DNA of 47,133 nucleotides from Candidatus Berkelbacteria bacterium CG10_big_fil_rev_8_21_14_0_10_41_12 (GCA_002778735.1 PEZV01000002.1:1-47133); one strand, 5' to 3'; numbered from the stretch's first letter, positions 3,208-44,941 are shown. Made by a program: numbers and translations. The notes: a model not told the origin generated them from the letters alone.

Positions 3208-4311
3208 ATGGATGAGGAGAAGAAAAAAAGAGTAAGCTGGGACGAATATTTTATGAATATTGCTCATCTTGTTGCTACCAGGTCAACTTGTAACAGAGGG
3301 GTGCCGATAAAATATTTATCAAAATACAAAGGTGTAGGGGCTGTTATTGTGAAAGACAGAGTCATTCTTTCGACCGGATATAATGGTTCCCCAAGAGGTC
3401 TTGATCATTGTGATGATGTCGGGCATGAGATGATAGAGGGGCATTGTGTCAGGACTGTGCATGCGGAAGCCAACGCTCTTGCCTCGGCAGCTAAACACGG
3501 TATTGCTGTTGACAAGGCAACGTTTTATACCACTGCTTCACCGTGTTACGACTGTTTTAAAATGCTTATTAATGCCGGCATAGAGAGAATTGTCTGCGGT
3601 TCGTTTTATGGAAGCCGTTATGGCGCGAGTGAAAAAGTTGTCGGTCTTGCCGCTCAAGCGGGCATACAGTTTGAATTTTTAAGATCGGAGTCGGATCAGC
3701 CACACGGATTTGATGAAGACACTATAAGAATTACCGAAGCAAAAGTGGCAGATATAAATAAGCTAAAAGTGAGAAAAATACATCCCTCGGCAACAGTGCC
3801 TTCTTATTCACACAATGGCGACGCAGGTCTTGATTTATTTGCGGTAGAAGGCGCCACAGTTGCTTCGGGCAAGCGCGCAAGTATCGGTACGGGAATTTCG
3901 GTAGAGATTCCTATGGGGTATGCCGGGCTAATTTGGGACAGGAGTGGCTTGTCGCAGAAAAAGGGATTGAAAACACTGGGCGGCGTAATTGATAGCACGT
4001 ATCGTGGTGAGATTATAGTTGGTCTTTATAACACATCCGACGAGGCAGTTGAGCTGATGAAAGGCGACCGAGTTGCGCAGATGTTAATCCAGCCGGTCGA
4101 GAGCGCAAAATTGGAGATTGTCGAAGACTTGAGCGAGACACAGCGCGCGGATAAAGGTTTTGGTAGTACGGAACGATCCGAGGGCAAGAAGTTGGAGGAA
4201 AGTGAAATTAGAGAAATAAAACAGGCTTCAGTGCCTGAAGAAATTAAGACGCAAAATAAAAACACCAGAAAGGAAGAAAATGGCGAAGGAAAAACTAAGA
4301 GCAGATGGTAA
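3208..4311 (+). CDS. fused dCMP deaminase (ComEB-type) / dUTPase
   Basis: N-terminal half carries the zinc deaminase motifs HAEANAL and PCYDCFKM. C-terminal half carries all five dUTPase motifs: [40 protein letters not shown]. Ends in a K/E-rich tail. Confidence 0.88.
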
Positions 4312-4384: not shown

Positions 4385-5626
4385 ATGAAGTCTGCAAAAT
4401 CCGGGTGGGGGGATAAAGTTTTTGCATTAATTAAAGAAGAAGAAAAAAGGCAGACAGACGGGCTTGAAATGATTGCCTCAGAGAATTATGTGTCCAAACA
4501 GGTGCTCGAGGCGACAGGGTCAGTTTTAACCAATAAATACGCAGAGGGTTATCCGGGGCACAGGTACTATGGCGGGTGTGAGGTGATTGATAAAATTGAG
4601 TCTTTGGCAATTGAGAGGCTGAAAAAATTATTTGGATGTAAATTTGCGAACGTACAACCGCATTGTGGATCCTCAGCTAATATGGCGGCATATTACGCTC
4701 TAATTAAACCGGGCGATAAACTATTGGGCCAAGCCATTGATGCAGGCGGACATTTGACACACGGCGCAAAAGTTTCATTCTCCGGACAAATCTATAAATC
4801 TTTTGGATATGGCCTGGATTCAAAGACGGGATTTTTGAATTATGAAGATATTGCGAAAATTGCAAAGAAAGTAAAGCCGAAGGTCGTTATGTGTGGCTAT
4901 AGTGCCTATCCGCGCAGTATTGATTTTAAGAAATTTAAGAAGATTGCGAGATCTGTAAATGCGTATTTAATTGCGGATATTGCCCATATTGCGGGATTAG
5001 TTGCGACGGGATATCATCAATCGCCTATTGGGATTGCGGATATTGTAACTTCGACAACGCACAAGACCTTGCGCGGTCCGAGATCGGGGATAATTATGAC
5101 TAATGACGAAGAGCTGGCAAAGAAAATTAATAGAGCAATTTTTCCGGCTCTGCAAGGCGGTCCGCTCGAGCATGTCATCGCCGCAAAGGCAGTGGCGTTT
5201 GGTGAAGCGTTGAAACCATCGTTTAAAAAGTATATCGGAGACATTCTTGAGAACATGAAAGTTTTTGCCAAGACGTTGATGTCTTTTGATTTTGATTTAG
5301 TTACCAACGGGACAGATAATCACCTTATCTTGGTTGATTTGCGAAGCAAAAATCTAACCGGACAGGAGTTTGAATCGGCGTTAGGTGAAGCAGGGATTAC
5401 GGTTAATAAGAATGGAATCCCTCTCGATCCTCTTCCGCCGAAAATAACCTCCGGAATTAGGGTTGGCACAGCCGCTTTGACTACCCGAGGTATGAGACCG
5501 AAAGAAATGCAAAGGATTGCCGAGATGTTTAATATTGTAGCGGAAAATATCTCGAACAAGAAAAAACTGCAGGAGATTAAAAGGGAGGTTAAAAGCATGA
5601 CAAAGAAGTTTCCCTTGACCCGTTAG
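4385..5626 (+). CDS. glyA: serine hydroxymethyltransferase
   Basis: [26 protein letters not shown] and the PLP-lysine region [12 protein letters not shown]. The ORF is open from 4280, but ATG 4385 gives the usual distance to the ASENY motif. Confidence 0.9.
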
Positions 5627-5634
5627 AGATAACT

Positions 5635-5895
5635 ATGCATTATACTTACATTTTGCAAAGTAAAAAAGATAATTGTTTGTATACCGGCTGTACAAAAGAT
5701 TTACGGAAGCGTTTTGATGAGCATATTCAAGGGCGAGTTTATCCTACCCGAGCCAGAGGCCCTTTTAAAATTATTTATTATGAAGCATGCTGGGATAGAG
5801 GTGATGCTTTTGCAAGAGAAAAATATCTTAAATCTGTATATGGCAAGCGATACCTAAAAAATAGGTTAAAACGCTTCCTATCTCTAACGGGGTAA
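5635..5895 (+). CDS. stand-alone GIY-YIG nuclease-domain protein (YhbQ/UPF0213-like)
   Basis: 86 aa with YTYIL...LYTGCT...R...H...G and no attached DNA-binding domain. Confidence 0.8.
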   Translation: MHYTYILQSKKDNCLYTGCTKDLRKRFDEHIQGRVYPTRARGPFKIIYYEACWDRGDAFAREKYLKSVYGKRYLKNRLKRFLSLTG

Positions 5896-5896
5896 A

Positions 5897-7285
5897 ATGC
5901 CAAAAAGAAGAGTTTATGTTTTAGAAGGTAAAACGGAGGAAGAAATTGCTATGGCGATGGCAGTGACCAGCAGGTCTCCATTGCCGTTTGATGAAATTTT
6001 ATCCCAAATAGATAGCAAAAAATCCGGCAACTTTCTCGAGAAATTTTATATCAATTATGGGCACGGTTCAATTGCGGATACGGCGTTTATCCACATTGCG
6101 ATTGAAAACATTTCGCAAATTGCGGTAAAAGCTCTTGAAAATACGCGACTTGCCGCTTATCAAGAAAAGTCCACACGGTATCAGATAATGGATCGCCGTC
6201 ATATTGTCGAGCCAAGCGAAATTAAAAAATCGCAATACCATAAGATTTATCTGGAGATAATCAATGGCTTATTTGATCTCTACGAAGAGTTTGTAAAAAT
6301 ATTATTATCAAACGCGAGAAAAAATATTAAACGTGGCAAAGATGAATCGGAAAGTGCATATGAAAATCGAATTAGAATTCCTGTAATTGATCGTTGCCGA
6401 CTAATCCTGCCAACTGCAGTAATGTGTAATGTTGGTTTGACAATGTCCGGGAGGTCAATTGAATATACGATAGCCAAACTTCTTTCCAGCCAGCTTTCTG
6501 AAGTGAGGGCGCTGGGCCAAGAAATAAAGAAGGTGGCCAATAATAACTTACCAATTTTAGTAAAGTATTCGGACCCTATAGATTATTTGATTAGGCAGGA
6601 AAAAAGTTTGCAGAAATTAGGCAAAGGGATAATTGGTAAAAGAATATTGCCACATCCTCGAGGAAAATTTGTTGAACTGGTGGAATATGACGGAAATGCA
6701 CTGGGCAAAGTTTTAAGTGCAACGCTACTTAGATTTAGCGGCAGGTCATACGCTGAGATTAAAAAAGTAGTTGGAAAAATGTCTCGGAAAGAGAAGGAAG
6801 AATTATTTGACAAGATTATTGGGAACAGAAAACAAAGACATGATAAACCCTTGAGGGAATTGGAAGCTACGCATTATACTTTTGATATTGTCTGTGACTA
6901 TGGTGCATTTAAGGATTTGCAACGTCATCGTATGACTACGCAAACACTTCAACCGTTCACAACAAGTTTAGGATACGTTGAGCCGATGAATCTTGCCGAA
7001 ACTGGCAAGGTTAAGGAATATCACGCTTTGATGAAAAAAGTCGAGAAAGTATATAAAGTAATTTCGAAAAAGTTTCCGCTGGAGGCGCAATATCTTATCC
7101 CGATGGCGTATAGAAAGAGAACCTTATTTAATATGAATTTGCGCGAAGCGATATACCTTATTGAGCTGCGCTCCCGGCCTCAAGGACATATCTCTTATCG
7201 AAGAGTTTCTTGGGAAATGTGGGATCAGATAAATAAAGTGCATCCATATTTTGCAAAACATATTAATGTGAATAAGAGCCAATAA
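5897..7285 (+). CDS. thyX: FAD-dependent thymidylate synthase, double-length ThyX-like
   Basis: 462 aa, about twice a canonical ThyX. First half has YGHGSI....FIHI and YQEKSTRY. Second half has LQRHRMTTQT. Sits between glyA and tmk. Confidence 0.75.
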   Translation: MPKRRVYVLEGKTEEEIAMAMAVTSRSPLPFDEILSQIDSKKSGNFLEKFYINYGHGSIADTAFIHIAIENISQIAVKALENTRLAAYQEKSTRYQIMDRRHIVEPSEIKKSQYHKIYLEIINGLFDLYEEFVKILLSNARKNIKRGKDESESAYENRIRIPVIDRCRLILPTAVMCNVGLTMSGRSIEYTIAKLLSSQLSEVRALGQEIKKVANNNLPILVKYSDPIDYLIRQEKSLQKLGKGIIGKRILPHPRGKFVELVEYDGNALGKVLSATLLRFSGRSYAEIKKVVGKMSRKEKEELFDKIIGNRKQRHDKPLRELEATHYTFDIVCDYGAFKDLQRHRMTTQTLQPFTTSLGYVEPMNLAETGKVKEYHALMKKVEKVYKVISKKFPLEAQYLIPMAYRKRTLFNMNLREAIYLIELRSRPQGHISYRRVSWEMWDQINKVHPYFAKHINVNKSQ

Positions 7286-9779: not shown

Positions 9780-10188
9780 ACAAGTCCGTGTTGGCTGTGG
9801 TGCACTAATTATCAACGAAAAGGATGAAACGTTATTGATAAAGCGCGGAACTAAGGCTAAAAATCAATCTGGCATTTGGTCGCAACCCGGAGGGGCAATT
9901 GATTTTGGCGAAACAGTTGAGCATGCGATCAAGCGTGAGATCGATGAGGAACTGGATGTTACGGTTAAGCTAATAAAGTATCTTTGTTACACTAATCAAA
10001 TCTTAAACAAAGAGAGTCAGCACTGGGTTGCAATTAGTTATTTGGCAGAAATTATTAAGGGTGAGCCAAAAAATTTAGAAGCGCATAAGCATGACGACAT
10101 GAGATGGTTCCCGGTAGATAAACTTCCTTCTAAACTTTCAATTACAACTAAAGATTCGACAAAAGCGTATTTATCTTCGCGTAAATGA
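9763..10188 (+). CDS. NUDIX hydrolase
   Basis: Nudix box GGAIDFGETVEHAIKREIDEELD. 141 aa. Confidence 0.85.
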   Translation: MNRQNKQVRVGCGALIINEKDETLLIKRGTKAKNQSGIWSQPGGAIDFGETVEHAIKREIDEELDVTVKLIKYLCYTNQILNKESQHWVAISYLAEIIKGEPKNLEAHKHDDMRWFPVDKLPSKLSITTKDSTKAYLSSRK

Positions 10189-11211
10189 CAAGATCTTATT
10201 TAGCTTATGCCAACGGCGCTGTTTTTCTTTCCATGAAATTGGATCGCCGAGTTTATATGCAGCTGTGCCTGCTCGCGGCGAGTATTTGTTGATATAGGCC
10301 ATCCTGTAGCCGACTTTTTTAAATACGCCGAGGGTGTCTTGAAATTCTTTTTCATCTTCTCCCGGAAAACCGACAATAACATCTGTTGTAATTTTAATTT
10401 TTGGATTTGCTTTACGGATTTTATCTACGATTTCTAAATATTGTTTTATTGTATACGGGCGATTCATTAATTTTAATATTTTATCCGAACCGGACTGCAG
10501 TGGCAAGTGAATCTCCTTTTTGATTTTCGGCAAAGTTGCCACTGCCTCGATGATATCATCCGTCATATCTTTTGGGTGGTTGGAAATAAAAGAAACCATA
10601 AAATTTCCCTTCAATGAGTTTAACTTTTTGAGTAAAGTGGCAAAATCTTTCTTTTTACTTTTATCTTTTATCTTTTCACTTTGGTTATAGGAGTTCACAT
10701 TTTGTCCGAGCAGTGTAATTTCTTTATGCCCGGCATCTATTATTTGCTTTGCTTCTTTTATGATTTCATTCATCGGCCGAGATATTTCACGTCCTCGAGT
10801 GTAGGGGACAGCGCAATATGAACAGAAGTTGTTGCACCCGTTCATTATCGGCAGAAAATGAGTTTTAGGTTTGTCATTCCGGAGAGTTTGGCTCTGTCTA
10901 TTTAAAATTTTTGAAAGTGTTTTTTTATCAAAACTGTCAAGCACTCTGATATTTGATTTCTTGAATTTTCTTTTGTCTGCCTCTATTACACAGCCGAGAA
11001 TAAAAATTTCCTTACCTTTCCACTTGTTAATTCTTCCCATTAATCTGTCAACAGCAGTTTGTCGTACCGCACAAGCAACGACAAAAATATATTGAGCCGA
11101 ATTTTCGCCGGTTTTTTTGAATCCGAGATCCTTCAGAACTTTTTCTAATTTTGCCGAGTCGTATTTATTTTGCTGGCAACCTAAAGTAAGAATCCAATAG
11201 TTGAGATCCAT
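10171..11211 (-). CDS. radical-SAM methylthiotransferase, MiaB/RimO-like, no TRAM domain
   Basis: UPF0004 N-terminal domain (LGCQQNKYDS) and radical-SAM cluster motif CNNFCSYCAVPYTRGRE. Ends after the radical-SAM domain. Confidence 0.8.
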   Translation of the reverse strand: MDLNYWILTLGCQQNKYDSAKLEKVLKDLGFKKTGENSAQYIFVVACAVRQTAVDRLMGRINKWKGKEIFILGCVIEADKRKFKKSNIRVLDSFDKKTLSKILNRQSQTLRNDKPKTHFLPIMNGCNNFCSYCAVPYTRGREISRPMNEIIKEAKQIIDAGHKEITLLGQNVNSYNQSEKIKDKSKKKDFATLLKKLNSLKGNFMVSFISNHPKDMTDDIIEAVATLPKIKKEIHLPLQSGSDKILKLMNRPYTIKQYLEIVDKIRKANPKIKITTDVIVGFPGEDEKEFQDTLGVFKKVGYRMAYINKYSPRAGTAAYKLGDPISWKEKQRRWHKLNKILSFTRR

Positions 11212-11969
11212 TATTTATTAGTGTCTTCGGGAGTTCTCTTTTCGGTTTTCTCTTCTACTCGGGCTTCGTCAGTAGCTTTTTCTTCGCCTTCTTTAGCCTC
11301 TCCACCTTCTTCCTCTTCAGCTCCCGCCTCAGTTTCCATTTGTTCGATCGCTTCTTTTTCTTTTTCGGCTGCCGATTCCTCTAATTCTGCAAGCTCTTCT
11401 TCGCTTCGCGGAGGCTCAACGTTAGCAACTACCTCTTCCGGTTCATCCAAGACAGTAATCCCATTTGGAACCTTCAAATCTTTTATCAAAATGGAATCTT
11501 CAAATGTTTTCAGTGCACTGATATCAACTTGAATTCCACTAACCAAATTGCCCGGCAGACATTCGACCTCAATCGAGTCCTTATTTTGGACCAAGCTTCC
11601 CTCAAGGTTTTTGACTGCATTGGATTCCCCAATAAATTCGAGCGGAATTTCTGTTTTGATTTTTTCATCCATTTTTACTCTATAGAAATCAATATGAATA
11701 ATTTTACCCGTGACTGGATTAAACTGCGGATGCGAAGCAATTACCTTTGTTGCTTTTTCATTATCTATTTTGAGGTCAATCAAAGTTGAATATCCTGCTT
11801 TTTCTATTGCCTGATCGAGCTCTTTGTCGGGGGTTTTGATCGAAACATTTTCTAATTTATGTCCATATAAAATGGCGGGTACATAACCTTGCGCACGCAA
11901 GTCCTTGACCCTTTTTCCATACACGTCGCGTTTTTGGGCTTGTAATAGAATTTCTTCGTTTGTATTCAT
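11211..11969 (-). CDS. rplY: 50S ribosomal protein L25 / Ctc with acidic tail
   Basis: RDVYGKRVKDLRAQGYVPAILYG at the N-terminus, a second Ctc beta-domain, and an E-rich tail of about 60 aa. Confidence 0.88.
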   Translation of the reverse strand: MNTNEEILLQAQKRDVYGKRVKDLRAQGYVPAILYGHKLENVSIKTPDKELDQAIEKAGYSTLIDLKIDNEKATKVIASHPQFNPVTGKIIHIDFYRVKMDEKIKTEIPLEFIGESNAVKNLEGSLVQNKDSIEVECLPGNLVSGIQVDISALKTFEDSILIKDLKVPNGITVLDEPEEVVANVEPPRSEEELAELEESAAEKEKEAIEQMETEAGAEEEEGGEAKEGEEKATDEARVEEKTEKRTPEDTNK

Positions 11970-12404: not shown

Positions 12405-14825
12405 TTATTTAAAGCTCATAACGGTTCCTAAAGCTCCGAGGGCGTACCCGAGAGTGCTGGGGGGCGTATAGGGTTGATATGGCGAATATGTCCCATATGT
12501 TCCGGTATTTGGCAAATAATATGTTGGTCCATAAAGTTGCGGGCATATCTGTAGTAGTTGCAATTGCTGTTGGTTTGGAACCAAGGAACTGGCATATCTG
12601 GTATAGTATGCCGTCTTGCATTGCTGGAGCGTCGGATAACCGTTGTAAGCAGAAGTCTGCCCGTACGGATATTGATATTGGTTAGTCGGGTAGTTTGGCT
12701 GATAAGCGCTATATCCGTTTCCGGAGAAGAGATATGGGCTAAATCCGCATTGGTTAAATAAATCAAGATTAATATTGATATTGCCGCTATTGCCTTTTGC
12801 GAGAAGCTGAGTAATGGCAATCCCGCCAAGCGCGTTTTTGATGCTGTTGCTTGTGCTATTGTTGCTGAATCCTAACTCGTAAACGGCGTAAGCGTACCCT
12901 AAATTTTTTAGCAAATTAGAGTCCGCACTGATTCCAATTTGCGCCGCGAGCCCGGGGTTTTTATCAACGCAATCCTTTACCATATTTGCAAATGTTTTCT
13001 GATCCGCGGGATTATTCGGATCCAATTGGGGTTTGGTTAGGAGTTGATTAGTCCAGCCGGGCTGGGGAGTGTCGGGATTATAATAAAGAGCACTAACGCT
13101 CGATAGGGGATTTTGAGCATCGCCGGCTGTGGTTGCGATGTAATAATTATCCTTAAGCCCCGGCACCCTGCTGACTGTATAACTGGCGGGAGCGGCTGGT
13201 ACTTCTGCACCTTTATTTGGTGCCAATTCAAGGTTATTTGTGTCTAAATTTATCGATCCCGAGTCGCTTGTGATGGAGAATTGAACACTTTTTGACTGAT
13301 ATCCGGATTTGCTTAAGCTCAAAGTGTAAGTACCTTTAGGAATATATGGGATTGAGACGATTGAGGTATCTCCACCTTCGGGAGTCATACCGGTGACATT
13401 TACAGCATTTGAGCCGGCTCCACTAAGGCGATTTTTGAGATTAGTATAGTCATTGGCGATAGCGCTGGTGCTTTGCGTTTTTGTTTTAATTTTATCAATA
13501 GTGCCGCTGCTAATATTTGGTGTGTCTGTCTGGTCAGAATTTTTTATATTAGTACCGACAAGATCGCCCACCGAATCAAAAACTTTCTTCAAGTTCGAGG
13601 TAAGTGCGCCGCTGGTTTGGTCTGAGGACGAGGTCTGATTGCCATTTTCGTCTATCGAAGCGGCTTTGGCGTTGTTTGAAGATGTGCCGACAAGCGAAAA
13701 GTTTACACCTCCGATTCGCACCATATTGCCGCTAAATCCTCCCGATTTTCTCTTGGCGCTGAAAATGATTGTATTTTGGCCGCTTGGGACGCTGTACTGC
13801 CCGGGCTGGGCCTGTGCGGTGTAGTTTACCGAGTCGGATGCTTGGCTGGAGGAACAATTTATTCGAAATTCATATAGATTTTGGGGAGTGGAGTATGGCA
13901 AAGGCGCTGACATGTTAACGGCAGTATTCTGATTGGCCGGCTTGTATGCAATGAGATAAAGTTTACCGGAGCTGTTCATTTGATTGGCAAGCTGGTTGAA
14001 TTTGGATAAATCCGTATAAAGCTTTCCTGTTTTGTCGGTAATGCCTACTGTTTGTGGCTGTGTGCCGTTGTCAGTAAGAGCAATTTGTGCATCTTTTATA
14101 GGGGTATTAACCGTTCCGGCTGTTGTTACAGAGAAGGTTACAGTGGAAACATTGTGTTGTTGGGCGGTTGTACCTCCTTCTGAAGAGGTGCCGGACCCTG
14201 AACCTGCCCCAGTTGTACCTCCTTCTGAAGAGGTGCCGGACCCTGAACCTGCCCCAGTTACTCCTCCTTCCTGTTCCCCTGATAAACTCGGCTGATCGCT
14301 AATTGGGTTTTTAGGACTTTCGACTTGCGTAGCTTGAGAGCTGTCGCCGGGGTTTGATTTCGGAGGTGAATAATAGCCGCTTGCAGAGCGGATTTGAATG
14401 ATTCCACTGGGAATATTTGCCTCGGAGATATAGTAGTCACTTGCCTTACCAGGGGCACAAGTAATATTAGCGCTGTAAACTAATTTCGAGCTTGAATTAG
14501 TTTGTGGCATATGAATAACGGCGTAATATGGTGTTGTGCTGGCCGGGATGGTAGCAGAACGATTGGTGTTTGAAATTATCGCTACAGGGCTAATGCCCAT
14601 TAGACTGGGATTAGATTGCACTCCCATTTTAGTGTTGTAATCTAGAATATAAACATATTTAGAAGAAGAAGCAGCATCTTCAACGATATCTTTATCTAAA
14701 GCGATTCTACATTCATCTGCTGGACTTGACGTTGACGCAAAAATACCCCAGAAATTATTTCTATAGCCTATGTATGCAATTACTCCAAGTGTAACCACTG
14801 CTCCGGCGACGATAAGCGAAGTGAT
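12405..14825 (-). CDS. large membrane-anchored low-complexity surface protein
   Basis: About 800-aa ORF rich in S/T/N/Q/G. It has CarboxypepD_reg-like beta-sandwich stretches and a tandem GGTTGAGSGSGTSSE repeat, plus a Q/N/Y/P-rich C-terminal third. The track starts it at GTG 14798; I extend to ATC 14825 to recover the full TM anchor (see findings). Confidence 0.7.
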   Translation of the reverse strand: MTSLIVAGAVVTLGVIAYIGYRNNFWGIFASTSSPADECRIALDKDIVEDAASSSKYVYILDYNTKMGVQSNPSLMGISPVAIISNTNRSATIPASTTPYYAVIHMPQTNSSSKLVYSANITCAPGKASDYYISEANIPSGIIQIRSASGYYSPPKSNPGDSSQATQVESPKNPISDQPSLSGEQEGGVTGAGSGSGTSSEGGTTGAGSGSGTSSEGGTTAQQHNVSTVTFSVTTAGTVNTPIKDAQIALTDNGTQPQTVGITDKTGKLYTDLSKFNQLANQMNSSGKLYLIAYKPANQNTAVNMSAPLPYSTPQNLYEFRINCSSSQASDSVNYTAQAQPGQYSVPSGQNTIIFSAKRKSGGFSGNMVRIGGVNFSLVGTSSNNAKAASIDENGNQTSSSDQTSGALTSNLKKVFDSVGDLVGTNIKNSDQTDTPNISSGTIDKIKTKTQSTSAIANDYTNLKNRLSGAGSNAVNVTGMTPEGGDTSIVSIPYIPKGTYTLSLSKSGYQSKSVQFSITSDSGSINLDTNNLELAPNKGAEVPAAPASYTVSRVPGLKDNYYIATTAGDAQNPLSSVSALYYNPDTPQPGWTNQLLTKPQLDPNNPADQKTFANMVKDCVDKNPGLAAQIGISADSNLLKNLGYAYAVYELGFSNNSTSNSIKNALGGIAITQLLAKGNSGNININLDLFNQCGFSPYLFSGNGYSAYQPNYPTNQYQYPYGQTSAYNGYPTLQQCKTAYYTRYASSLVPNQQQLQLLQICPQLYGPTYYLPNTGTYGTYSPYQPYTPPSTLGYALGALGTVMSFK
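14170..14259. repeat. perfect 45-bp tandem duplication (2 copies) inside the surface-protein gene
   Basis: GTACCTCCTTCTGAAGAGGTGCCGGACCCTGAACCTGCCCCAGTT occurs at 14170-14214 and again at 14215-14259. Confidence 0.95.
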
Positions 14826-15999: not shown

Positions 16000-16503
16000 T
16001 TATTGATTTTCTTTTTTATCTTTCGGTTTTTCTTCCTGTTGGTCAGCTGTTTTTGGCATTGCGGATTTTTGCTCATTAGCTATTGCTTCAGGAGTTTTTT
16101 CGGGCTCTTGAGTCGCTGCACTTCCATTTTTTTCTTCTCTCGGCTTTTTATCCGTTGTATTTGTTGCTTCGCTTGGCCTCTTAGCTTCCGACCTGCTTTC
16201 CTTTTTTTCTTGTTTCTCTTCCTTTGTCTTAGGAGCCTTTTTGGCATCCGGGATGTATATAATGTTTTTGTGCTTGATTTTATTTTCAATCAAAAATTTT
16301 GCCATCGAATTTGATGGTTTTGCTCCCTTGGATACAAGTTCAAGAATCTGATCCTTGCTAATCTTAGATTCTTTGGTAACAGGGTTGTAATACCCTAATA
16401 TTTTTAAAGCGTTAGATTTAACGGCGCTCTTTTTATCTGTTAAGACGATTCTGTAGAACGGGCTGTTTTTTTTGCCAGTTCTCTGAAATCTGATGGTCAG
16501 CAT
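16000..16503 (-). CDS. rpsP: 30S ribosomal protein S16 with a K/E-rich extension of about 85 aa
   Basis: MLTIRFQRTGKKNSPFYRIVL..., GYYNP. Confidence 0.92.
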   Translation of the reverse strand: MLTIRFQRTGKKNSPFYRIVLTDKKSAVKSNALKILGYYNPVTKESKISKDQILELVSKGAKPSNSMAKFLIENKIKHKNIIYIPDAKKAPKTKEEKQEKKESRSEAKRPSEATNTTDKKPREEKNGSAATQEPEKTPEAIANEQKSAMPKTADQQEEKPKDKKENQ

Positions 16504-31691: not shown

Positions 31692-31723
31692 AACAAAAAA
31701 TTACTCCTTAAAGTTCTTAGTGT

Positions 31724-31752
31724 ATTTTACCACTTTTATAGATATAACACAA
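31724..31752 (-). promoter_or_regulatory. candidate gyrB promoter
   Basis: Minus strand reads TTGTGT-17 nt-TAAAAT (TGG just upstream of the -10), 30 nt upstream of the gyrB ATG. Confidence 0.45.
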
Positions 31753-31835
31753 ATGTCCCAAATTCGAAAATCTTCATTTCCACTTGCAAAATATATGTTT
31801 TTAAAAGTACGAACGATCCTTTTACAATAGGGCAT

Positions 31836-31873
31836 AAAAGAGAAAGGGCTGGGACAGTTAGACCGCCCAGCCC
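31836..31873 (-). terminator. GC-rich intrinsic terminator closing island 1
   Basis: Minus strand reads GGGCTGGG-12 nt loop-CCCAGCCC followed by TTTCTCTTTT, 35 nt after the gpsA-like stop. Confidence 0.75.
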
Positions 31874-31907
31874 CATTTTATGTGCTTGGGTTCAGATGCC
31901 TCGGCCA

Positions 31908-32870
31908 TCACAGCCAGCCTGACCTTCTTCCTTCGAGCGATTTGCGTGCTTCTTTGACGGTCAACTGTCCGTCAAGGATGTGTTTGGTACAATGCAGGTA
32001 AGGCAGGTCGGTCGCTGACATACCGGGCTTCTTGCACATCTCGTACACGTTGTTGAAGCTCTCAACCACGCCGCGCTCGTTCTCAATTCGAGATCGGACC
32101 TCGTCCGGATACGAACCTTGAGCGATGAGCAAACCAACATGATAATTGCGGCTGCCGGAACTTGAGCAGAGATTTTCATCGGCTCTAAGAATCCGGCGGA
32201 CACATTCAGCGTCATGGTCGGCGCTCGCGCAGGTGTCCCAGCGGTGCATGCCGGTGATCTTCGCGGCCTCGGCCTCGATACTTGCTTGTACTAATGCCAA
32301 AGTCGAGGGTTCGCCTAACAACTCCCAGTCGGCCATTCCGCGTTGGAGGGAGACGATTGTCCGCAGTTGGTTCAAGTGAACAATCGTCATAGGATCGTGC
32401 CATTTGACCGGCCAGAAGTTCGAGATCTCACGGATCAATATCTCGGCGCCATTGTCTGCTCGGCGATAACTAGGGTATGCCGCGACGATCATGCCGACAA
32501 TCTCACCTCGCAGTAGACTCTCTGAGAGAACAGCGCCGGTTAGGTAGTAGACCCCATTCCAGCGATTGTCCTGGAAGATGTCTTTGCTGAGGCCACCTTT
32601 CTGGACGAGCCAGAGCGACGTCGATAGGTGATCACCTTCGAGTTGTGCGAGCACTTCCGGAACCGCGGCGGCCGGCGTGGTGATAAAGACGTGATCGAAC
32701 TCATCCACATCAGGCAGACCCGTTGTTACCTTGTCCGCGCCGAACTTCTCGGCGGCCGACTGTGCCTTGGCCGGATCGCGGATGTACATCAGGCAGTTAT
32801 GACTTGCTCCTTCAAAGGCGTGAAATAGTCCCTGTCCGAAGTGGCCGGCACCGATAATTGCGACCCTCAT
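31908..32870 (-). CDS. divergent NAD(P)-dependent glycerol-3-phosphate dehydrogenase-like protein
   Basis: G+C-rich. MRVAIIGAGHFG Rossmann start. The C-terminal SRNYHVGLLIAQG...VVESFNNV...LPYLHCTKHIL resembles GpsA SRNRR.G..LGQG...VVEG......MPI...Y.VL. ATG 32870 overlaps the upstream stop (TAATG), with GGAGG 9 nt upstream. The track ORF is open to 32894. Confidence 0.65.
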   Translation of the reverse strand: MRVAIIGAGHFGQGLFHAFEGASHNCLMYIRDPAKAQSAAEKFGADKVTTGLPDVDEFDHVFITTPAAAVPEVLAQLEGDHLSTSLWLVQKGGLSKDIFQDNRWNGVYYLTGAVLSESLLRGEIVGMIVAAYPSYRRADNGAEILIREISNFWPVKWHDPMTIVHLNQLRTIVSLQRGMADWELLGEPSTLALVQASIEAEAAKITGMHRWDTCASADHDAECVRRILRADENLCSSSGSRNYHVGLLIAQGSYPDEVRSRIENERGVVESFNNVYEMCKKPGMSATDLPYLHCTKHILDGQLTVKEARKSLEGRRSGWL

Positions 32871-34606
32871 TAAGAGAGCCTCCTTATGCGGCATGCGGCT
32901 TTTGCCGCGGCTTGCTTGATGTGTTCGATCTGCTTGTCAGTGATCGCTCCGCCGTCACCGGTGCGCAGCGCTCCGGTCCCGTCGGAGCGAGAGTTGCAGA
33001 TCTTGGCGATATGCAGGACTTCTAGCAGGTCGTACTTACCGCCCACTCCGCCAAGATATTTGGTTTCGCCTGCTTCGGCTAGTGCCTGCGTCTGGAAGAG
33101 ACAGGCGAACGACATGTCTTCGGGCAAGCCAAGAATGCTTGGGAGGTTAGCATTTTTGCATTCAACCAGCCCCCCGTCATAGACCAATACGTCTTCGCGT
33201 GAGACCTTGAAGTCCCTAGGGCGCGCGATATCGCAGACAATCGCTCCCGGCCTTAGAGTAGTCTCATCAATCTCGAGTTCCGTAGCCGAGGAGGTCGCTG
33301 AGATGATAAGATCGGCTTCAGATAGCGCCTCGTTCAAATCACTTGCCACGACGACGTCAAGGTCAGGGTGTGTGATGTGAATCTGTTGCTGGCATATTGC
33401 CGCTCGTTGCAGTGTCCGATTATAGAGAATGATCTTTCTAATAGGCAGCAGCTCGGCGGCCAACATGGCGGCAACGGAACCGACTCCGCCCGTGCCGATG
33501 ACAAGCAGGACGCAGTCCTTGATGTCCTTGCCCATCTTCTGGCATGCCAGGTTGAGTGAACCCACACCGATCCATGCGGTGTAGTCATTGCCGGTCGTAA
33601 TGTGGATCCGGCCGTGAAAACGGTCCCGCAGAACTTGCCCTCTATTGCCGACGATGGCTGTATAAGCACCGAGTCCGGCGTGGGTTGCTCCAGCCATTGC
33701 TCCTAAACGGATCATGCGCGAAATGGCCCAGAGGGCAAACTGCTGATGCCGCATCATGAAGCTTGGATCTATCGGCACCGGAGGGATTAAGCCTTGACTT
33801 GGCTTGCGCCAGTCTTCCCTCCCGTCAACTCTGTTCCAAAACATCGCCTCGCGGACGAAAGCCGCCGGGTAGATAAGGAAGAGAAGCGGCGCCAGGAGAG
33901 AGTTGAAGAACCAGTAAGGCAGAAACGCTAGGCGTGGACTCTTCTTGACAAAGTAGTCCTTGAGATAGGTCGGGTCGTCTGTGGTGGGGTGCACCACGAA
34001 GCCGTATTGCAGACACGGCCGACCCTTTTTGGAGTTTGGCTCGTAGCCGAGCTTGATCAGGTTAAGGTTCAGGATATGGCCCCAGAGAACCAGAGCGAAA
34101 GTCGCCCAGACCCAGCCACTGTTTCCCCACCCGATCCCGATCGCGAACATCGCCGTGAACAGAAATGCGGCGGCTACGCTCGCCAGCGAAGTGTAACCGC
34201 TCTTCTTCTTGAGAAGCGCGAAGAACGCCAGCGCAACCAGGGCGAACGGCCACCATAAGGCCGCTGCGACTCCCAAGAATGTGGCCACACCTTTGCCGCC
34301 CTGGAATGTCAGCCAGAACGGGTAGCGATGGCCCGCTATGACCATGAAGCCGCACAGGGCTTGGAAGCTGTAGCCATAGCCGTAGTGCCGCGCCAGCATG
34401 ATCGCAACGAAACCCTTGAAGGCATCAAACACGACTGCGGGCACATACAGATTCTCACAACCCTTAACCCGCTTCAGATTGGAGGCGCCGACATTACCAG
34501 AGCCGAGCTTCCGCAGGTCACGACCCGTTGCGAGGTAGCATAGCAGCCATGCAGCCATCGATGCCCCAATGACGTATGACCAGAGCAGCAGATACAGCTC
34601 TTGCAT
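32870..34606 (-). CDS. fusion protein: PlsY (acyl-phosphate:glycerol-3-phosphate acyltransferase) + acyl-ACP-reductase-like NAD(P) dehydrogenase domain
   Basis: G+C-rich. N-terminal PlsY motifs GSGNVGASN and HRYPFWLTFQGGKGVAT, with multiple TM helices. C-terminal domain has YGFVVHPT, TTGNDYTAW, the Rossmann stretch VLLVIGTGGVGS, NRT and MSFAC. I prefer ATG 34606; the track ORF is open to 34663. Confidence 0.7.
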   Translation of the reverse strand: MQELYLLLWSYVIGASMAAWLLCYLATGRDLRKLGSGNVGASNLKRVKGCENLYVPAVVFDAFKGFVAIMLARHYGYGYSFQALCGFMVIAGHRYPFWLTFQGGKGVATFLGVAAALWWPFALVALAFFALLKKKSGYTSLASVAAAFLFTAMFAIGIGWGNSGWVWATFALVLWGHILNLNLIKLGYEPNSKKGRPCLQYGFVVHPTTDDPTYLKDYFVKKSPRLAFLPYWFFNSLLAPLLFLIYPAAFVREAMFWNRVDGREDWRKPSQGLIPPVPIDPSFMMRHQQFALWAISRMIRLGAMAGATHAGLGAYTAIVGNRGQVLRDRFHGRIHITTGNDYTAWIGVGSLNLACQKMGKDIKDCVLLVIGTGGVGSVAAMLAAELLPIRKIILYNRTLQRAAICQQQIHITHPDLDVVVASDLNEALSEADLIISATSSATELEIDETTLRPGAIVCDIARPRDFKVSREDVLVYDGGLVECKNANLPSILGLPEDMSFACLFQTQALAEAGETKYLGGVGGKYDLLEVLHIAKICNSRSDGTGALRTGDGGAITDKQIEHIKQAAAKAACRIRRLS

Positions 34607-34677
34607 GTGTTTCCGTCCTTTCTTGTGTATGTCAACGCCGATTTTGCGGCTTACATCGAGCATAACTCGATCTGGAA

Positions 34678-34706
34678 ATTATAGAATAAAAATAGCTTTT
34701 GCACAA
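34678..34706 (-). promoter_or_regulatory. candidate promoter driving island 1 operon
   Basis: Minus strand reads TTGTGC-17 nt-TATAAT. It lies in the AT-rich flank about 70 nt upstream of ATG 34606. Confidence 0.55.
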
Positions 34707-34757
34707 TAAAATAAAATTTCTTTTTCAAGAGTTAGAATTTTGCAAGGGTTAGACCAT

Positions 34758-41884: not shown

Positions 41885-42496
41885 CTATAATAAAGTTCTT
41901 TTGTCAAGGAATTTCATGCGGTTATAAATTTCTCGGGTCAAGCGTACATCTTGTTTGCAATATTCTAAAATTTTTTTAATCTTGCCAGCCTTAAATGTAT
42001 CGTAGACCTTATCGCCTGAGAGACCTAATTTTGAAGTTTTAAGATTTAGGATTTTCGAGAGAGTATCTAAACTGATTGAGCTATTGGCCCAATATTCCCA
42101 TTCACGCATTGTATCATAGATTGGGCTGCTGCGGTATCTCGCAAAAGATAATATTTGGGATGGTCTAACGGCATTTATAATAGATCGTTTATAAATGTAG
42201 CGCAGATCAAAATCCATTACGTTATGCCCAATAAATAGGTCAACGTTTTTTGCTATATCCCAGAATTTTTCCAAAATCTCTTTTTCGCGTTTGCTATATA
42301 TTATATCTATACGCTCGTTGTCTTTAGCATACCCGATGCAAAGAATCCTCCCAAAGTTACCGTCTAACGCACTCCTTCGGAAAAAGGTCTCAAAATCTTC
42401 TTTTTGGACGAACTGCTTATCGTATTTTTCCTTGAAATATTCCCGATATTTATCTGGTGCGGGAATGGTTTCAATATCTAAAAATAATTTATTCAT
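41885..42496 (-). CDS. DEDDy 3'-5' exonuclease, PolB-exonuclease-like (RNase H fold)
   Basis: LDIETIP (DxE), GHNVMDFDLRY, YCKQDVRLT (Yx3D). Overlaps the lysK 3' end by 8 nt. Confidence 0.7.
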   Translation of the reverse strand: MNKLFLDIETIPAPDKYREYFKEKYDKQFVQKEDFETFFRRSALDGNFGRILCIGYAKDNERIDIIYSKREKEILEKFWDIAKNVDLFIGHNVMDFDLRYIYKRSIINAVRPSQILSFARYRSSPIYDTMREWEYWANSSISLDTLSKILNLKTSKLGLSGDKVYDTFKAGKIKKILEYCKQDVRLTREIYNRMKFLDKRTLL

Positions 42497-44057
42497 TTAT
42501 ATCGAGTAAATTGGTAACTTTTTCCTTACCGAGAGCGAGAAAAAAAGTGTTTAATCTTGGGCCTGTTTCTTGTCCGATTAACAGCATATAAATATTTTTG
42601 AAAAATTTTCTTTGGATTTTTTTAAGTTCTTGGGTGTCTTGAGTTTGTGATTTGGGAATATCATACAATAAATTCATCAGAGCTTCCTCGCTCCAATGCT
42701 GGTCAAGTTTTTTAATGAGTTTTTTAATCATTTCTTTTTGCCCTTGGGGCAATTTGGCGAAATAGTCTTTATTGGCGTTACTCTCGACACTGACGCGATA
42801 CTCGGGAGGGGCATAATTTTCAGTCCAATTAAGTGCGCTATTAAATCTCGCGTCTAAATTATCTTGGCTAAATTTAGCACCGGCTTTTTTAAGAAGTTTT
42901 TCGAGCTCGGTCCTGTTGCCTTTAGTGAGTTGGACAAATGAAGCAAGCTGTCGGAAGGAAAGACTGTTTGGTTTGATTTTTCTGCCGGGTTTGATTTGAC
43001 TATAAAAACCGATCTGTTTTTCTTCGTCTGTTGCCGAGTTTGTAGAGATTTTTCCTGCGAACCGATCAAATTCAGCGTAGTTTTTTAGAATTTGCTGATC
43101 AAAGGCAAAATTTAACATAGATAGAGGTTTAGTCTTGGCATAAAACCACCTTATTATTTCGGGTTCGTAGATGGCTAAGAGGTCGGAGATTTTTATTACA
43201 TTGCCGAGTGAACTTGACATTTTGGCATTCATCCCGACTATGCCGATAAATTCATACGCTTGATATACGGGTGCAGGATTATTAAATATTTCCTGAGATA
43301 TTTTACTTGCGACATCAAACGATCCACCCCGTGTGGAATGTTCTTTACCACCCGGTTCAAATGAGACTTTTTCATAACTCCACCTCATTGGCCAGTCAAT
43401 TTTCCATACTAACTTGCCAATATTTTTTTTGGAAATATCCGCGGTTTCTTTGTGAGAGCACTTGCATTCGTAACTGACAAGATTTTCCCCATCATAATCT
43501 GTTATCTTTGTGGAATCCTTATTACAGGCTTCGCAATAAACCGTTAGGGGATAATATTTTTCAATATCTTCTTTGGAGAAATCTTGCACTTTGAAGTTAA
43601 ATAGGATTCTGGCAATTTCTTTTCTCCTTTGAAGAGCTATTTTGATGAGAGGATAATATTTATTATCCAAATACATCTTGTGCTGATAAATAAAGCGAGG
43701 ACGAATCCCGACTTTGGCAAGATCTTTTTCAACATCTTTTTCGAAGTGTACCGAATACGAATCATGGCAGCCATAAGGGTCTGGCACTTTATAGAGTGGC
43801 ATACCGATATATTTAGAGAATTCTTCCGGAACGCCCTTGGGAATTTTGCGCAGCCGGTCGTAATCGTCCCAAGAACAGATAAATTCGGCATCTTTGCCCG
43901 CTTCCTTTAAGCCGCGAAAAACAAATTCGCTGGTGATGGCATCGCGCAAGTTGCCGATGTGAACTATGCCAGAAGGAGTAATTCCGGCCGCACAGACATA
44001 TTTGTCTGTTTTTTTAGTGTCAATTATTTTTTTTACACACTCGTCAATCCAGTACAT
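42489..44057 (-). CDS. lysK: lysine--tRNA ligase, class I
   Basis: Rossmann class I signatures PSGIVHIGNLRD (HIGH) and KMSSSLGN (KMSKS). 522 aa with the class I LysRS layout. Confidence 0.9.
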   Translation of the reverse strand: MYWIDECVKKIIDTKKTDKYVCAAGITPSGIVHIGNLRDAITSEFVFRGLKEAGKDAEFICSWDDYDRLRKIPKGVPEEFSKYIGMPLYKVPDPYGCHDSYSVHFEKDVEKDLAKVGIRPRFIYQHKMYLDNKYYPLIKIALQRRKEIARILFNFKVQDFSKEDIEKYYPLTVYCEACNKDSTKITDYDGENLVSYECKCSHKETADISKKNIGKLVWKIDWPMRWSYEKVSFEPGGKEHSTRGGSFDVASKISQEIFNNPAPVYQAYEFIGIVGMNAKMSSSLGNVIKISDLLAIYEPEIIRWFYAKTKPLSMLNFAFDQQILKNYAEFDRFAGKISTNSATDEEKQIGFYSQIKPGRKIKPNSLSFRQLASFVQLTKGNRTELEKLLKKAGAKFSQDNLDARFNSALNWTENYAPPEYRVSVESNANKDYFAKLPQGQKEMIKKLIKKLDQHWSEEALMNLLYDIPKSQTQDTQELKKIQRKFFKNIYMLLIGQETGPRLNTFFLALGKEKVTNLLDINE

Positions 44058-44191: not shown

Positions 44192-44890
44192 CTATGCTAT
44201 AGCGGATGTTGCGGCTGGTATGGGAAGCTCAAGTTGGTCAACAGACAGGCCTTTTGCGGAGATCCGGTCGATCTCTGCTACCAGTTTGTCATAGGCGTCA
44301 AGATGCTCGACCAGGATCAGTGCTCGGCAGTCCCTGAACATTGGGAGGTAGTAGTCGCGCGTCTTGCGGTAACAGTTGGCGCGGCGCCTTTCGGCGTTTG
44401 AGGTGGCGTTAACGATAAAGTCGTCGGCGGTGAGGACATTGTGCCAACAGTCGAGGAGCTTGGCGAAGATTACTCGCCAATTGTTTGACGAGCGCATCTG
44501 CGCGACGTAGAGAACCATTGCCTCGTGTTGGCTCAGCTTACCTCGCTTGATTTTCGTGAGCGCGATGACCGCCATGGCGATCTCGATGCCGAAATACTCG
44601 GTTAATATCTCGGCGTTGACGTTATTGCCTTCTTCCAGTACGTCGTGCAGGCCAGCGATACATATCAGCGCGAAGTCACTGACTTCCCTCAGAGCTTCAA
44701 GTGTGCAGGCATAGGCGTGTTCGCACGCCGGCTGCCTTGAAGCCCTGAACTTGCCATAGAGCGCGGTGGTAATGACGTGGCCGAGTCTGGCGACGCGAGC
44801 TATGTCTTCTCCTGGACGTGTATCCAGATGAAACTCGCGCTGGAACTCGACCATACTGGGACTTCCGGGTTGCTTTGAGGCGGCGAACAC
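44192..44890 (-). CDS. HD-domain protein, SpoT/Mesh1-type small alarmone hydrolase-like
   Basis: G+C-rich. AGLHDVLEEGNNVNAEILTEYFGIEIAMAVIALTKIK resembles SpoT ALLHDVVEDT...I...FG..VA.LV.GVTK. AKLLDCWHNVLT resembles KLADRLHNMRTL. I prefer GTG 44890 (AGGAGG 6 nt upstream); the track begins at TTG 44911. Confidence 0.7.
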   Translation of the reverse strand: MFAASKQPGSPSMVEFQREFHLDTRPGEDIARVARLGHVITTALYGKFRASRQPACEHAYACTLEALREVSDFALICIAGLHDVLEEGNNVNAEILTEYFGIEIAMAVIALTKIKRGKLSQHEAMVLYVAQMRSSNNWRVIFAKLLDCWHNVLTADDFIVNATSNAERRRANCYRKTRDYYLPMFRDCRALILVEHLDAYDKLVAEIDRISAKGLSVDQLELPIPAATSAIA

Positions 44891-44941
44891 TTTATGCCTC
44901 CTATCTGTCAAGATTCGACCCCGCTAAGCGGGGGGTTATAC

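Follow-up and report, generated by a model that had tools for sequence, protein, structure and literature searches.

PlsY, the acyltransferase of the PlsX/PlsY/PlsC pathway, needs an activated acyl donor, acyl-phosphate, for its chemistry; the glycerol-3-phosphate (G3P)-binding residues of the Aquifex enzyme are Ser35, Arg45, Lys104, Asn180 (phosphate clamp), Ser142, and His177, with His177 and Asn180 being part of the cytoplasmic active site (PMC5700162). No canonical PlsY carries a soluble catalytic domain in the structures and families that this study matched. Here we describe a two-gene operon whose first gene is predicted to encode exactly such an arrangement, a PlsY domain joined to a soluble domain with the fold of the cyanobacterial acyl-ACP reductase (AAR), and whose second gene encodes a protein resembling GpsA, the NAD(P)H-dependent G3P dehydrogenase. 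The operon fills a block rich in guanine plus cytosine (G+C) at positions 31836 to 34675 of a 47,133-nucleotide stretch from Candidatus Berkelbacteria bacterium CG10_big_fil_rev_8_21_14_0_10_41_12 (GCA_002778735.1, PEZV01000002.1:1-47133); this whole stretch is called the window below. The NCBI entries for the two proteins are COT77_00320 and COT77_00315, and the organism belongs to the Candidate Phyla Radiation (CPR), or Patescibacteria.

CPR bacteria are regarded as incapable of synthesizing their own lipids. In the CPR (Nealsonbacteria) genomes that they screened from the Crystal Geyser aquifer, under a sample name that shares its prefix with this metagenome-assembled genome (MAG), Probst et al. 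detected PlsY and PlsC and neither PlsX nor enzymes dependent on acyl carrier protein (ACP), and they asked what makes acyl-phosphate in CPR (PMC7242380). In the CPR-enriched size fraction, 72 of 72 intact polar lipids were acylglycerols, many of them lysolipids, and no ether lipids were reported (PMC7242380). Foreign genes are common in these organisms: in 125 Patescibacteria genomes, islands of horizontal gene transfer (HGT) were frequent, and most transfers took place within the phylum (PMC12455944).

The described proteins nearest to the soluble domain are AAR, the N-terminal domain of PigE, and the terminal amidation domain (TAD) of the carmabin nonribosomal peptide synthetase. AAR works via an acyl-S-Cys intermediate, and for TAD, whose activity is itself only proposed, a release of the acyl-S-enzyme by a non-hydride nucleophile has been put forward (preprint 10.1101/2024.10.28.620694). 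In PigE, from the prodigiosin pathway, the N-terminal domain (PDB code 4PPM) is a COG5322 domain of thioester-reductase type, joined to a class III aminotransferase that takes the aldehyde.

A two-gene operon fills the G+C-rich block

We profiled the composition of the window with a 1-kb sliding window and found 55 to 57% G+C at ~32.0 to 34.5 kb, against 34 to 44% across most of the 47 kb. At 100-nt resolution the edges of the block lay at ~31,846 and ~34,650, and each composition step was completed within ~50 nt. The interval from 31836 to 34675 has 56.1% G+C, and the remainder of the window has 39.1%. The two open reading frames (ORFs) that occupy the block, both on the minus strand, have a G+C content at third codon positions (GC3) of 0.641 (GpsA-like gene) and 0.674 (fusion gene). 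For reference, the 36 other ORFs of at least 120 amino acids (aa) in the window, taken as the backbone, have a mean GC3 of 0.369 (standard deviation, 0.031; maximum, 0.438), so that the z-scores of the two genes are +8.8 and +9.8 for GC3 and +6.0 and +6.4 for total G+C. In relative synonymous codon usage (RSCU) and in tetranucleotide usage, the block correlates negatively with the backbone (r = -0.2 to -0.4), whereas backbone chunks of the same size gave r = 0.90 to 0.94. A sequence-only reading of the window had described an abrupt G+C-rich island here, bounded on the left by a G+C-rich terminator and with GC3-rich codon choice. Each of these observations was borne out, and the block proved atypical in its sliding-window G+C, tetranucleotide, and codon profiles alike. 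That reading went wrong in calling the codon choice unlike that of every backbone gene, because an ORF at 44192 to 44911 has a like composition (55% G+C; GC3 of 0.658; z = +9.3); this second islet is taken up in the last section.

The block is organized as a compact operon (Table 1). The full fusion ORF has 597 codons and runs to 34663, and the 578-aa form begins at its Met20. Translation most likely starts at this second Met (34606), because an AAGGA lies 9 nt upstream and because the closest relative of the fusion, P0002, and other homologs align from there. Since this AAGGA is inside the G+C-rich block, the islet would have brought its own ribosome-binding site. At the junction between the genes, TAATG at 32868 to 32872 makes the TAA stop codon of the fusion gene and the ATG of the GpsA-like gene share one base, an overlap that indicates translational coupling; homologous gene pairs overlap by 1 or 4 nt in four related contigs (L097, L100, L102, and L109). 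The longest ORF for the GpsA-like gene starts at 32894 and gives 328 aa, and the JGI/ENA gene calls use the same start as ours (ATG 32870). Its stop codon (31908 to 31910) lies upstream of a terminator hairpin, GGGGCUGGGCGGU-CUA-ACUGUCCCAGCCC at 31845 to 31874, followed by the T tract UUCUCUUUUAU. This hairpin, which a simple terminator scan did not list, forms the left (3') edge of the island. No promoter of its own could be recognized for the islet. With its own ribosome-binding sites and terminator, the two-gene operon is self-contained as well as translationally coupled.

TABLE 1 Positions in the window of the operon, its parts, its junctions, and the second islet
Feature	Position	Strand	Details
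Left junction: AT-rich spacer, terminator to gyrB start	31692..31831		28% G+C
Intrinsic-terminator-like element ending the operon	31832..31874	-	Sequence, RNA fold
GpsA-like gene, 320 aa from ATG 32870	31908..32870	-	55.5% G+C, GC3 0.64
Shine-Dalgarno AAGGAGG, 8 nt before GpsA-like ATG	32879..32885	-	Sequence
Fusion gene, 578 aa from ATG 34606	32870..34606	-	56.5% G+C, GC3 0.67
AAR/COG5322-like domain, complete	32873..34005	-	Residues ~201-578; TIGR04058, PigE, PF01488
PlsY domain, seven transmembrane helices	33992..34606	-	Residues 1-205; PF02660, 5XJ5, Foldseek
Shine-Dalgarno AAGGA, 9 nt before ATG 34606	34616..34620	-	Sequence
Right junction: AT-rich spacer, DUF4012 gene to island	34664..34757		27% G+C
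Second islet: single orphan gene, 221-239 aa, flanked by class I lysS and metG	44192..44911	-

The first gene encodes PlsY fused to an AAR-like domain

The sequence-only reading was right about the island but missed what it encodes. The N-terminal half of the first protein scored 112.9 bits against PF02660 (Pfam cutoff, 24.1) and 109.8 bits against the TIGR00023 equivalog, below the cutoff of 137.2, and matched Aquifex PlsY (PDB code 5XJ5) by sequence with an E value of 6e-17. An AlphaFold2 model of the entire fusion (mean predicted local distance difference test score [pLDDT], 89; predicted template modeling score, 0.86) contained no disordered linker. Its residues 1 to 190, with pLDDT values of 85 to 96, adopt the seven-transmembrane PlsY fold, which Foldseek aligned with PDB entry 5XJ6 at a template modeling (TM) score of 0.88 and a root mean square deviation (RMSD) of 1.7 Å. 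All six G3P-binding residues are kept (S36, R46, K105, S140, H177, and N180 in the 578-aa numbering), and the GGKG acyl-phosphate motif is likewise common to this protein and Aquifex aeolicus PlsY (PDB codes 5XJ5 to 5XJ9). The window protein departs from the described pathway in adding an AAR-fold domain of ~375 residues directly after the last helix, and the partner of its gene is a GpsA-like gene and not plsX. The PlsY half scores higher against stand-alone PlsY proteins (36 to 45% identity) than against other fusions (27 to 36%).

Motifs seen in the soluble domain are TTGN, a dinucleotide-binding loop with the sequence GTGGVG, NRT (after strand 2), and ARPRD. The NRT motif suggests the use of NADP(H), by analogy with shikimate dehydrogenases. 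The putative catalytic cysteine is Cys502 (Cys521 of the ORF; codon 33101 to 33103); it lies in an FAC motif that, in the alignment with PDB entry 6JZU, coincides with the FAC of AAR containing the catalytic Cys294, and it is invariant in 15 of 15 aligned fusion proteins. The model shows the two-lobed AAR fold with a Rossmann C-lobe. Foldseek matched it over the whole AAR chain (TM scores of 0.81 to 0.82 for 6JZU and 6JZZ) and to the carmabin TAD (0.72 to 0.75; 0.74 for 9E56). Judged by its sequence, the fused domain belongs to the same superfamily as AAR (COG5322) and is not an AAR ortholog.

How the domain compares with each of these relatives bears on what it might do. With cyanobacterial AAR (PDB codes 6JZU and 6JZQ) it shares a whole-chain match (TM score of 0.81; RMSD of 3.5 to 3.7), the FAC cysteine motif, TTGN, and the GxGxxG loop; it differs in its ~20% identity, in having ARPRD where AAR has GYPKN, and in being tethered to the membrane through an acyltransferase without an aldehyde-deformylating oxygenase (ADO) partner. 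No gene for such an oxygenase is adjacent, the neighbors being the GpsA-like gene, gyrB, and the DUF4012 gene. The PigE N-terminal domain was the best NCBIfam match of the C-terminal domain after the PlsY models (E = 1e-25), has the LPRD/RPRD motif in common with it, and is likewise joined to an enzyme that would use its product. The partners differ, however: in PigE it is an aminotransferase taking an aldehyde, and here it is an acyltransferase taking an activated acyl group, so that the product handed to the PlsY half is probably not an aldehyde. Carmabin TAD (PDB codes 9E4S to 9E56) has the same fold and an invariant cysteine beside the nicotinamide, and its proposed release logic is the one that we propose for the fused domain, with phosphate as the nucleophile; it differs in its macrodomain-like N-lobe, its specificity for NAD, and its fusion to a carrier protein. 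We considered ARPRD as a phosphate-site signature specific to the fusions and rejected it as not diagnostic, because at least one stand-alone relative, P0004, shares it and the corresponding PigE motif is LPRD.

We found no description of a PlsY-AAR-fold fusion, or of its pairing with a GpsA-like gene, in the open-access literature, and the fusion is apparently undescribed. Reductase-like domains related to its C-terminal half also occur in other arrangements, either alone or behind SRPBCC (polyketide-cyclase-like), PilZ, or class III aminotransferase (PigE-like) domains (P0048, P0055 to P0058, P0070, P0075, P0085, and P0107). Several proteins of this set are ~700 aa long and have an N-terminal region of 350 to 400 aa without a Pfam match.

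The second gene encodes a divergent GpsA-like protein

The second protein scored 26.3 bits against PF07479 (cutoff, 25) and also matches PF03807. A profile built from six orthologs aligned with GpsA structure 3K96 over its full length (positions 4 to 329; E = 3.3e-16) and with GpsA structure 1Z82 (E = 2e-11), and the protein shows an N-terminal GxGxxG Rossmann domain and the GpsA C-terminal helical domain along its entire length. As in GpsA (PDB codes 3K96, 1Z82, and 1TXG), a GxGxxG loop (GAGHFG), a Lys-Gly motif (K91-G92, in QKG), an aspartate (D231), and the SRN phosphate-binding motif (S240-R241-N242) are kept. It differs from GpsA in its strong divergence, falling short of every NCBIfam cutoff (best score of 35 bits; cutoffs of 202 to 489), and in one pair of residues considered below. 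We conclude from these similarities that the second gene product is a very divergent GpsA-family dehydrogenase.

A candidate route to lysophosphatidate

Taken together, the two proteins could form a short route into phospholipid synthesis. The GpsA-like enzyme would reduce dihydroxyacetone phosphate to G3P, which the PlsY domain would acylate to lysophosphatidate at the cytoplasmic face of the membrane. Because the soluble domain starts ~20 residues after His177 and Asn180, it would sit at the mouth of the PlsY active site. There Cys502 might be loaded with an acyl group, whether drawn from a thioester or ester or generated by GAPDH-like oxidation of a fatty aldehyde, and the domain would pass it to PlsY, most plausibly as acyl-phosphate, thereby substituting for PlsX. 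GAPDH and aspartate-semialdehyde dehydrogenase interconvert thioesters and acyl-phosphates. We put forward this role, the supply of an acyl donor and most plausibly of acyl-phosphate by thioester phosphorolysis, as the likeliest one, though only tentatively; the grounds for it are this interconversion, the need of PlsY for acyl-phosphate, the acyl-S-Cys intermediate of AAR, the non-hydride release proposed for TAD, and the CPR genomes in which Probst et al. detected no PlsX.

Several observations weigh against this assignment. We found no phosphate-binding feature peculiar to the fusions, and the domain scored only 55.2 bits against TIGR04058, far below the cutoff of 449.7. The branch in which it falls contains PigE, reported to be a true thioester reductase (PMC8341465). 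In the GpsA-like protein, Arg170-Thr171 occupies the position of the GpsA Lys-Asn pair (3K96 and 1Z82); the window protein and two close homologs have Arg-Thr, and across the six orthologs only the Arg is invariant. The Lys of that pair is catalytic in GPDH enzymes.

The fused domain might instead be an ordinary NAD(P)H-dependent thioester reductase of the AAR/PigE kind, making a fatty aldehyde or alcohol for ether-type lipids or another product; the analogy behind the ether-lipid version is myxobacterial ElbD, a reductase-acyltransferase. We consider this quite unlikely, although the nearest structures and families are reductases (the AAR and PigE matches given above), the nicotinamide-site motifs TTGN, GTGGVG, and NRT are all intact, and PigE itself is reported to reduce a thioester. 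An aldehyde is not the activated acyl donor that PlsY requires (PMC5700162), a producer of free aldehyde would have no obvious gain from a tether ~20 residues from the G3P site, no aldehyde-consuming partner (ADO or aminotransferase) is adjacent, and the lipids of the CPR-enriched fraction were acylglycerols throughout (PMC7242380). If the acyl-donor role holds, CPR that lack both PlsX and ACP would charge PlsY through the fused domain, a new entry into phospholipid synthesis. The fusion is a candidate supplier of acyl donor for CPR without PlsX and a clonable candidate answer to the question of Probst et al., and together with the GpsA-like gene it fits the lysolipid-rich, all-acylglycerol membranes that these authors described.

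The module recurs as a G+C-rich islet

When 5.8 billion proteins were searched with a word index, the fusion had one close relative beyond the query (P0002, 60% identity) and ten other hits, all at 36% identity or less; the GpsA-like protein, apart from itself, matched only P0014 (47%). In an exhaustive HMMER search of 1.84 billion representatives, P0002 was again the only close relative, and at least 17 further full-length PlsY-AAR-like fusions (50%-identity clusters) were found at 28 to 37% identity, which makes the architecture a small, rare family. Its named carriers are another Ca. Berkelbacteria MAG (P0042), an unclassified "bacterium" MAG (P0038), and an Oceanithermus-like contig, at 26 to 30% identity. 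One fusion, P0005, has degenerate PlsY motifs, and the CarD encoded on its contig falls in a 90% cluster with Oceanithermus proteins.

We compared ten DNA contexts of the fusion gene (Table 2). In seven, the GpsA-like gene follows it directly, usually with a 1- to 4-nt overlap (the window, L011 to L013, L015/L016, L097 to L099 [Berkelbacteria], L100/L101, L102, and L109), and L103, L104, and L014 have no GpsA-like gene behind the fusion gene. The module stands +10 to +18 G+C points above its flanks in seven contexts, with a GC3 excess of +0.13 to +0.31; in the other three (L102, L103, and L014) it has the composition of its surroundings. Contig L109 is a near copy of the situation in the window, with a precise two-gene islet between lspA and rplT-rpmI-infC. 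The fusion proteins of these modules are only 25 to 33% identical to one another, apart from the window and L011 (60%) and the partial L015 fusion and L097 (44%), and the flanking genes differ in every lineage. An alignment scan of metagenome contigs for the GpsA-like protein added only L105 (1.8 kb; 60.6% G+C; 45% identity), a contig too short for a comparison with its backbone.

TABLE 2 G+C content of the module and its flanks in ten contexts
Context	Module G+C	Flank G+C
Window	56%	39%
L011	57%	39%
L015	59%	46%
L097	54%	43%
L100	52%	42-43%
L104	57%	43%
L109	57%	41%
L102	45% (44-46%)	43%
L103	50%	49%
L014	68%	67%

The module also shows signs of reassortment. On L015 (2 to 1530), the C terminus of the reductase domain is nearest to L097 (44%), whereas the GpsA-like gene has its nearest counterparts in the window (47%) and L011 (43%), with just 26% identity to that of L097; these mosaic affinities suggest recombination between module lineages at the gene boundary. 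A VIT-like gene next to the module is preceded by a sigma-70 gene on L011 and L013 and by an unrelated 111-aa ORF on L012, so that contigs with an identical module (the 60% relative) differ in the genes around it, a structural polymorphism.

Other features of these contigs deserve mention. In three relatives the G+C-rich block reaches two more genes (~327 and ~350 aa; no Pfam matches on record) past the GpsA-like gene (L097, 12935 to 15002; L015, 1656 to 3081; L011, 4316 to 4693, and L012, 4047 to 4487), and the window is without them. By eye, the ~350-aa product shows an HxH motif, QMHDHWREG, that recalls dihydroorotase, and the ~327-aa product resembles the TIM barrel of dihydroorotate dehydrogenase. 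L100 has more G+C-rich genes (131 to 1216, 1703 to 2787, and 4558 to 7061; 52 to 57%, in a backbone of ~40%), among them a pair resembling FGAM synthase (AIRS_C and GATase_5 domains); in genomes of this kind, biosynthetic additions may as a rule take the form of G+C-rich islets. An islet of opposite sign lies at 16082 to 18629 on L097 (31 to 34% G+C in a backbone of ~43%), where a CfrBI-type restriction enzyme, an N6/N4 methyltransferase, and a helix-turn-helix gene are found; a resolvase gene lies 610 bp away, on the other strand. On the Oceanithermus-like contig L014 (63% G+C), the fusion gene (10001 to 11680) has a compositionally native, high-G+C Deinococcota context. Its PlsY motifs read ASVYNLG for GSGNVGA and GGALLVG for GGKGVAT, and the PlsY half may no longer be an acyltransferase.

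Assembly integrity and origin of the block

Ten contigs, from ten samples and three pipelines (ENA/megahit, Logan, and JGI), encode exactly the same fusion protein, and all are 99.87 to 100% identical to the window. All ten cross the 34.65-kb junction, and five (L001, L002, L004, L005, and L006) cross both. The sequence-only reading had cautioned that a chimeric assembly must be excluded. In such a case a fragment from a high-G+C organism would have been misjoined or misbinned into a low-G+C contig; a sharp composition change at both ends is what a misjoin would look like, and the source record is a MAG. Identical junctions in independent assemblies make such an assembly chimera very unlikely, the least credible of the explanations weighed here. 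Moreover, the boundaries coincide exactly with intergenic spacers, the genes are co-oriented with their neighbors, the terminator immediately precedes the gyrB promoter region, the junctions contain no repeat that could have misled the assembler, and islets of like design occur in unrelated assemblies (L097, L100, L104, and L109).

We lean toward the view that the block is a foreign two-gene operon, a putative lysophosphatidate module, acquired laterally from an immediate source in an unsampled lineage or pool of ~54 to 59% G+C. The GC1, GC2, and GC3 of the window islet imply sources of 52, 63, and 58% G+C (Muto-Osawa/Lawrence-Ochman regressions); GC3 does not lag behind GC1 and GC2, so there is no sign of amelioration, and GC3 implies a source of 54 to 59% for all seven islets. 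Like genomic islands, the module is patchily distributed and occupies different insertion contexts in its relatives, and these different sites argue for mobility. It is the combination of composition, insertion sites, and a second islet of like signature in the same window that favors lateral acquisition. Compared with the islands described in Patescibacteria (PMC12455944), the islet shares the atypical composition, the patchy distribution, and the character of a metabolic add-on in a streamlined genome. It is, however, only 2.8 kb long, without mobility genes, and recurs as an islet across deeply diverged lineages, unlike the usual single-island signature. The predominance of within-phylum transfer in those genomes is compatible with a pool within CPR.

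This preference has to be set against a number of contrary findings. The hallmarks of mobility are missing, as the sequence-only reading had already seen: there is no integrase among the ORFs scanned inside or beside the block, no tRNA nearby (the only tRNA in the window, and the transfer-messenger RNA [tmRNA], are at 54 to 1386), and flanking att-like repeats are matched only at chance level. Searches of plasmids, phages, and IMG/VR gave no contig with a relative of the fusion or the GpsA-like protein. Neighbor-joining trees of each domain are star-like, with the window and P0002 on an isolated branch, and neither a donor nor a single fusion event for all fusions can be read from them. Low-G+C neighbors recur beside the module: the VIT-like gene on L011 and L097 (50% identical) and DUF7544 on L015 and L100 (33%), which hints at long residence or at a preferred locus. 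Finally, seven islets would need many transfers from donors essentially absent in 15 billion proteins, an unparsimonious demand. The lateral acquisition that the sequence-only reading had proposed finds support in the foreign composition, rarity, and contiguity of the block, but no actinobacterial or other host donor can be named. The closest relatives of the two proteins (60% and 47%) are metagenomic. A GTDB scan with an alignment of six fusions gave no donor information, the matches listed including ordinary PlsY and neither the window's genome nor any fusion. As an empty-site test, a scan of JGI metagenome contigs with the neighboring DUF4012 gene returned 0 matches, not even to the window's own population, in a collection that is without these samples.

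Two other accounts of the same facts were weighed. Recent transfer from the episymbiont's own high-G+C host, for which the sequence-only reading had suggested an actinobacterium, we regard as improbable. CPR bacteria live attached to hosts, the composition would fit a source of ~56 to 58% G+C, and a stand-alone protein from one Actinomycetota MAG (L025) is 34% identical to the reductase-like domain. Neither named Actinomycetota nor any cultured organism yielded a close protein, however; beyond the two metagenomic proteins just mentioned all relatives are at 36% identity or less, the PlsY half matches assorted stand-alone PlsY proteins (36 to 45%) without taxonomic signal, the named fusion carriers point elsewhere, and a fusion in a well-sampled host phylum would have surfaced in the exhaustive search. 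A module long resident in these genomes, its G+C content kept up by gene-specific selection, GC-biased gene conversion, or allele replacement from a shared pool, is rather unlikely but has more in its favor. It would account for islets in seven of ten contexts although their proteins are only 27 to 32% identical, for the near-equal source G+C that they imply, for the presence of the module in a second Berkelbacteria MAG, for the recurring VIT-like and DUF7544 neighbors, for the cassette recombination indicated by the L015 mosaic, and for the virtual lack of sampled native donors. On the other side, the modules of L102 (44 to 46%) and L103 (50%) are at host composition, and these genes therefore tolerate low G+C and do ameliorate; L102 in particular, equilibrated to its 44% host, shows that the genes do not need to be G+C rich. 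The locus of the window islet differs from that of every relative, the second, functionally unrelated islet of like signature is more simply derived from a common foreign source, and no known mechanism holds GC3 30 points above the mutational equilibrium of a genome in two genes.

The single recent event implied by the sequence-only reading is too simple, given that the module is an islet in seven of ten contexts at low mutual identity and is accompanied in the window by a second islet. The boldest combination, in which a formerly unrecognized acyl-phosphate former channels its product into PlsY independently of PlsX and FakAB and the operon belongs to a pool of G+C-rich cassettes, exchanged among CPR, that repeatedly replace resident alleles and so stay distinct in composition from their hosts, is in our judgment unlikely. 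G+C-rich HGT islets of this small size are nothing unusual; the gene content of this one is. Seven low-G+C genomes carry one rare module as a G+C-rich islet, which offers a test case for how streamlined symbionts gain and keep metabolic add-ons and for models of amelioration in these lineages.

The second islet and other features of the window

The second islet resembles the first in RSCU (r = 0.51 to 0.63) and tetranucleotide usage (r = 0.59), and its correlations with the backbone are negative. The product of its one gene has no Pfam match and, among 5.8 billion proteins, matches only itself. It is weakly similar to the HD (ppGpp-hydrolase) domain of RelA/SpoT (PDB code 9S6K; E = 2.7e-5), with the H...HD pattern aligned. 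Single-nucleotide polymorphisms in the population fall inside this islet at 44285 and 44318. A 797-aa ORF at 12405 to 14798 (minus strand), also without a Pfam match, is slightly elevated in G+C (45%). The increase stems from the second codon position (GC2 of 0.48; GC3 of 0.42), which marks it as an effect of amino acid composition and not as an islet signature.

The rest of the window consists of housekeeping genes, among them those for tmRNA, smpB, lgt, a dCMP-deaminase/dUTPase fusion, glyA, thyX, tmk, thrS, trmD, fmt, def, priA, obg, diadenylate cyclase, infB, gyrA, and gyrB. The island lies between gyrB and the DUF4012/Wzz polysaccharide genes; past it come the cluster to which the latter belong (DUF4012, Wzz, GT4, and sugar transferase), rnhB, class I lysS, and metG. 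Between 44057 and 25293 all large ORFs (at least 120 aa), those of the island included, lie on the minus strand. The dCMP-deaminase-dUTPase fusion (3208 to 4311; 367 aa) forms a compact dTMP-synthesis cluster with ThyX, glyA, and tmk. ThyX (5897 to 7285) is 462 aa long, with its best Thy1 stretch at residues 261 to 450 and a second matched stretch reported. The gene at 42489 to 44057 encodes a class I lysyl-tRNA synthetase (PF01921; 382 bits), an enzyme class found mostly in archaea and in a minority of bacteria.

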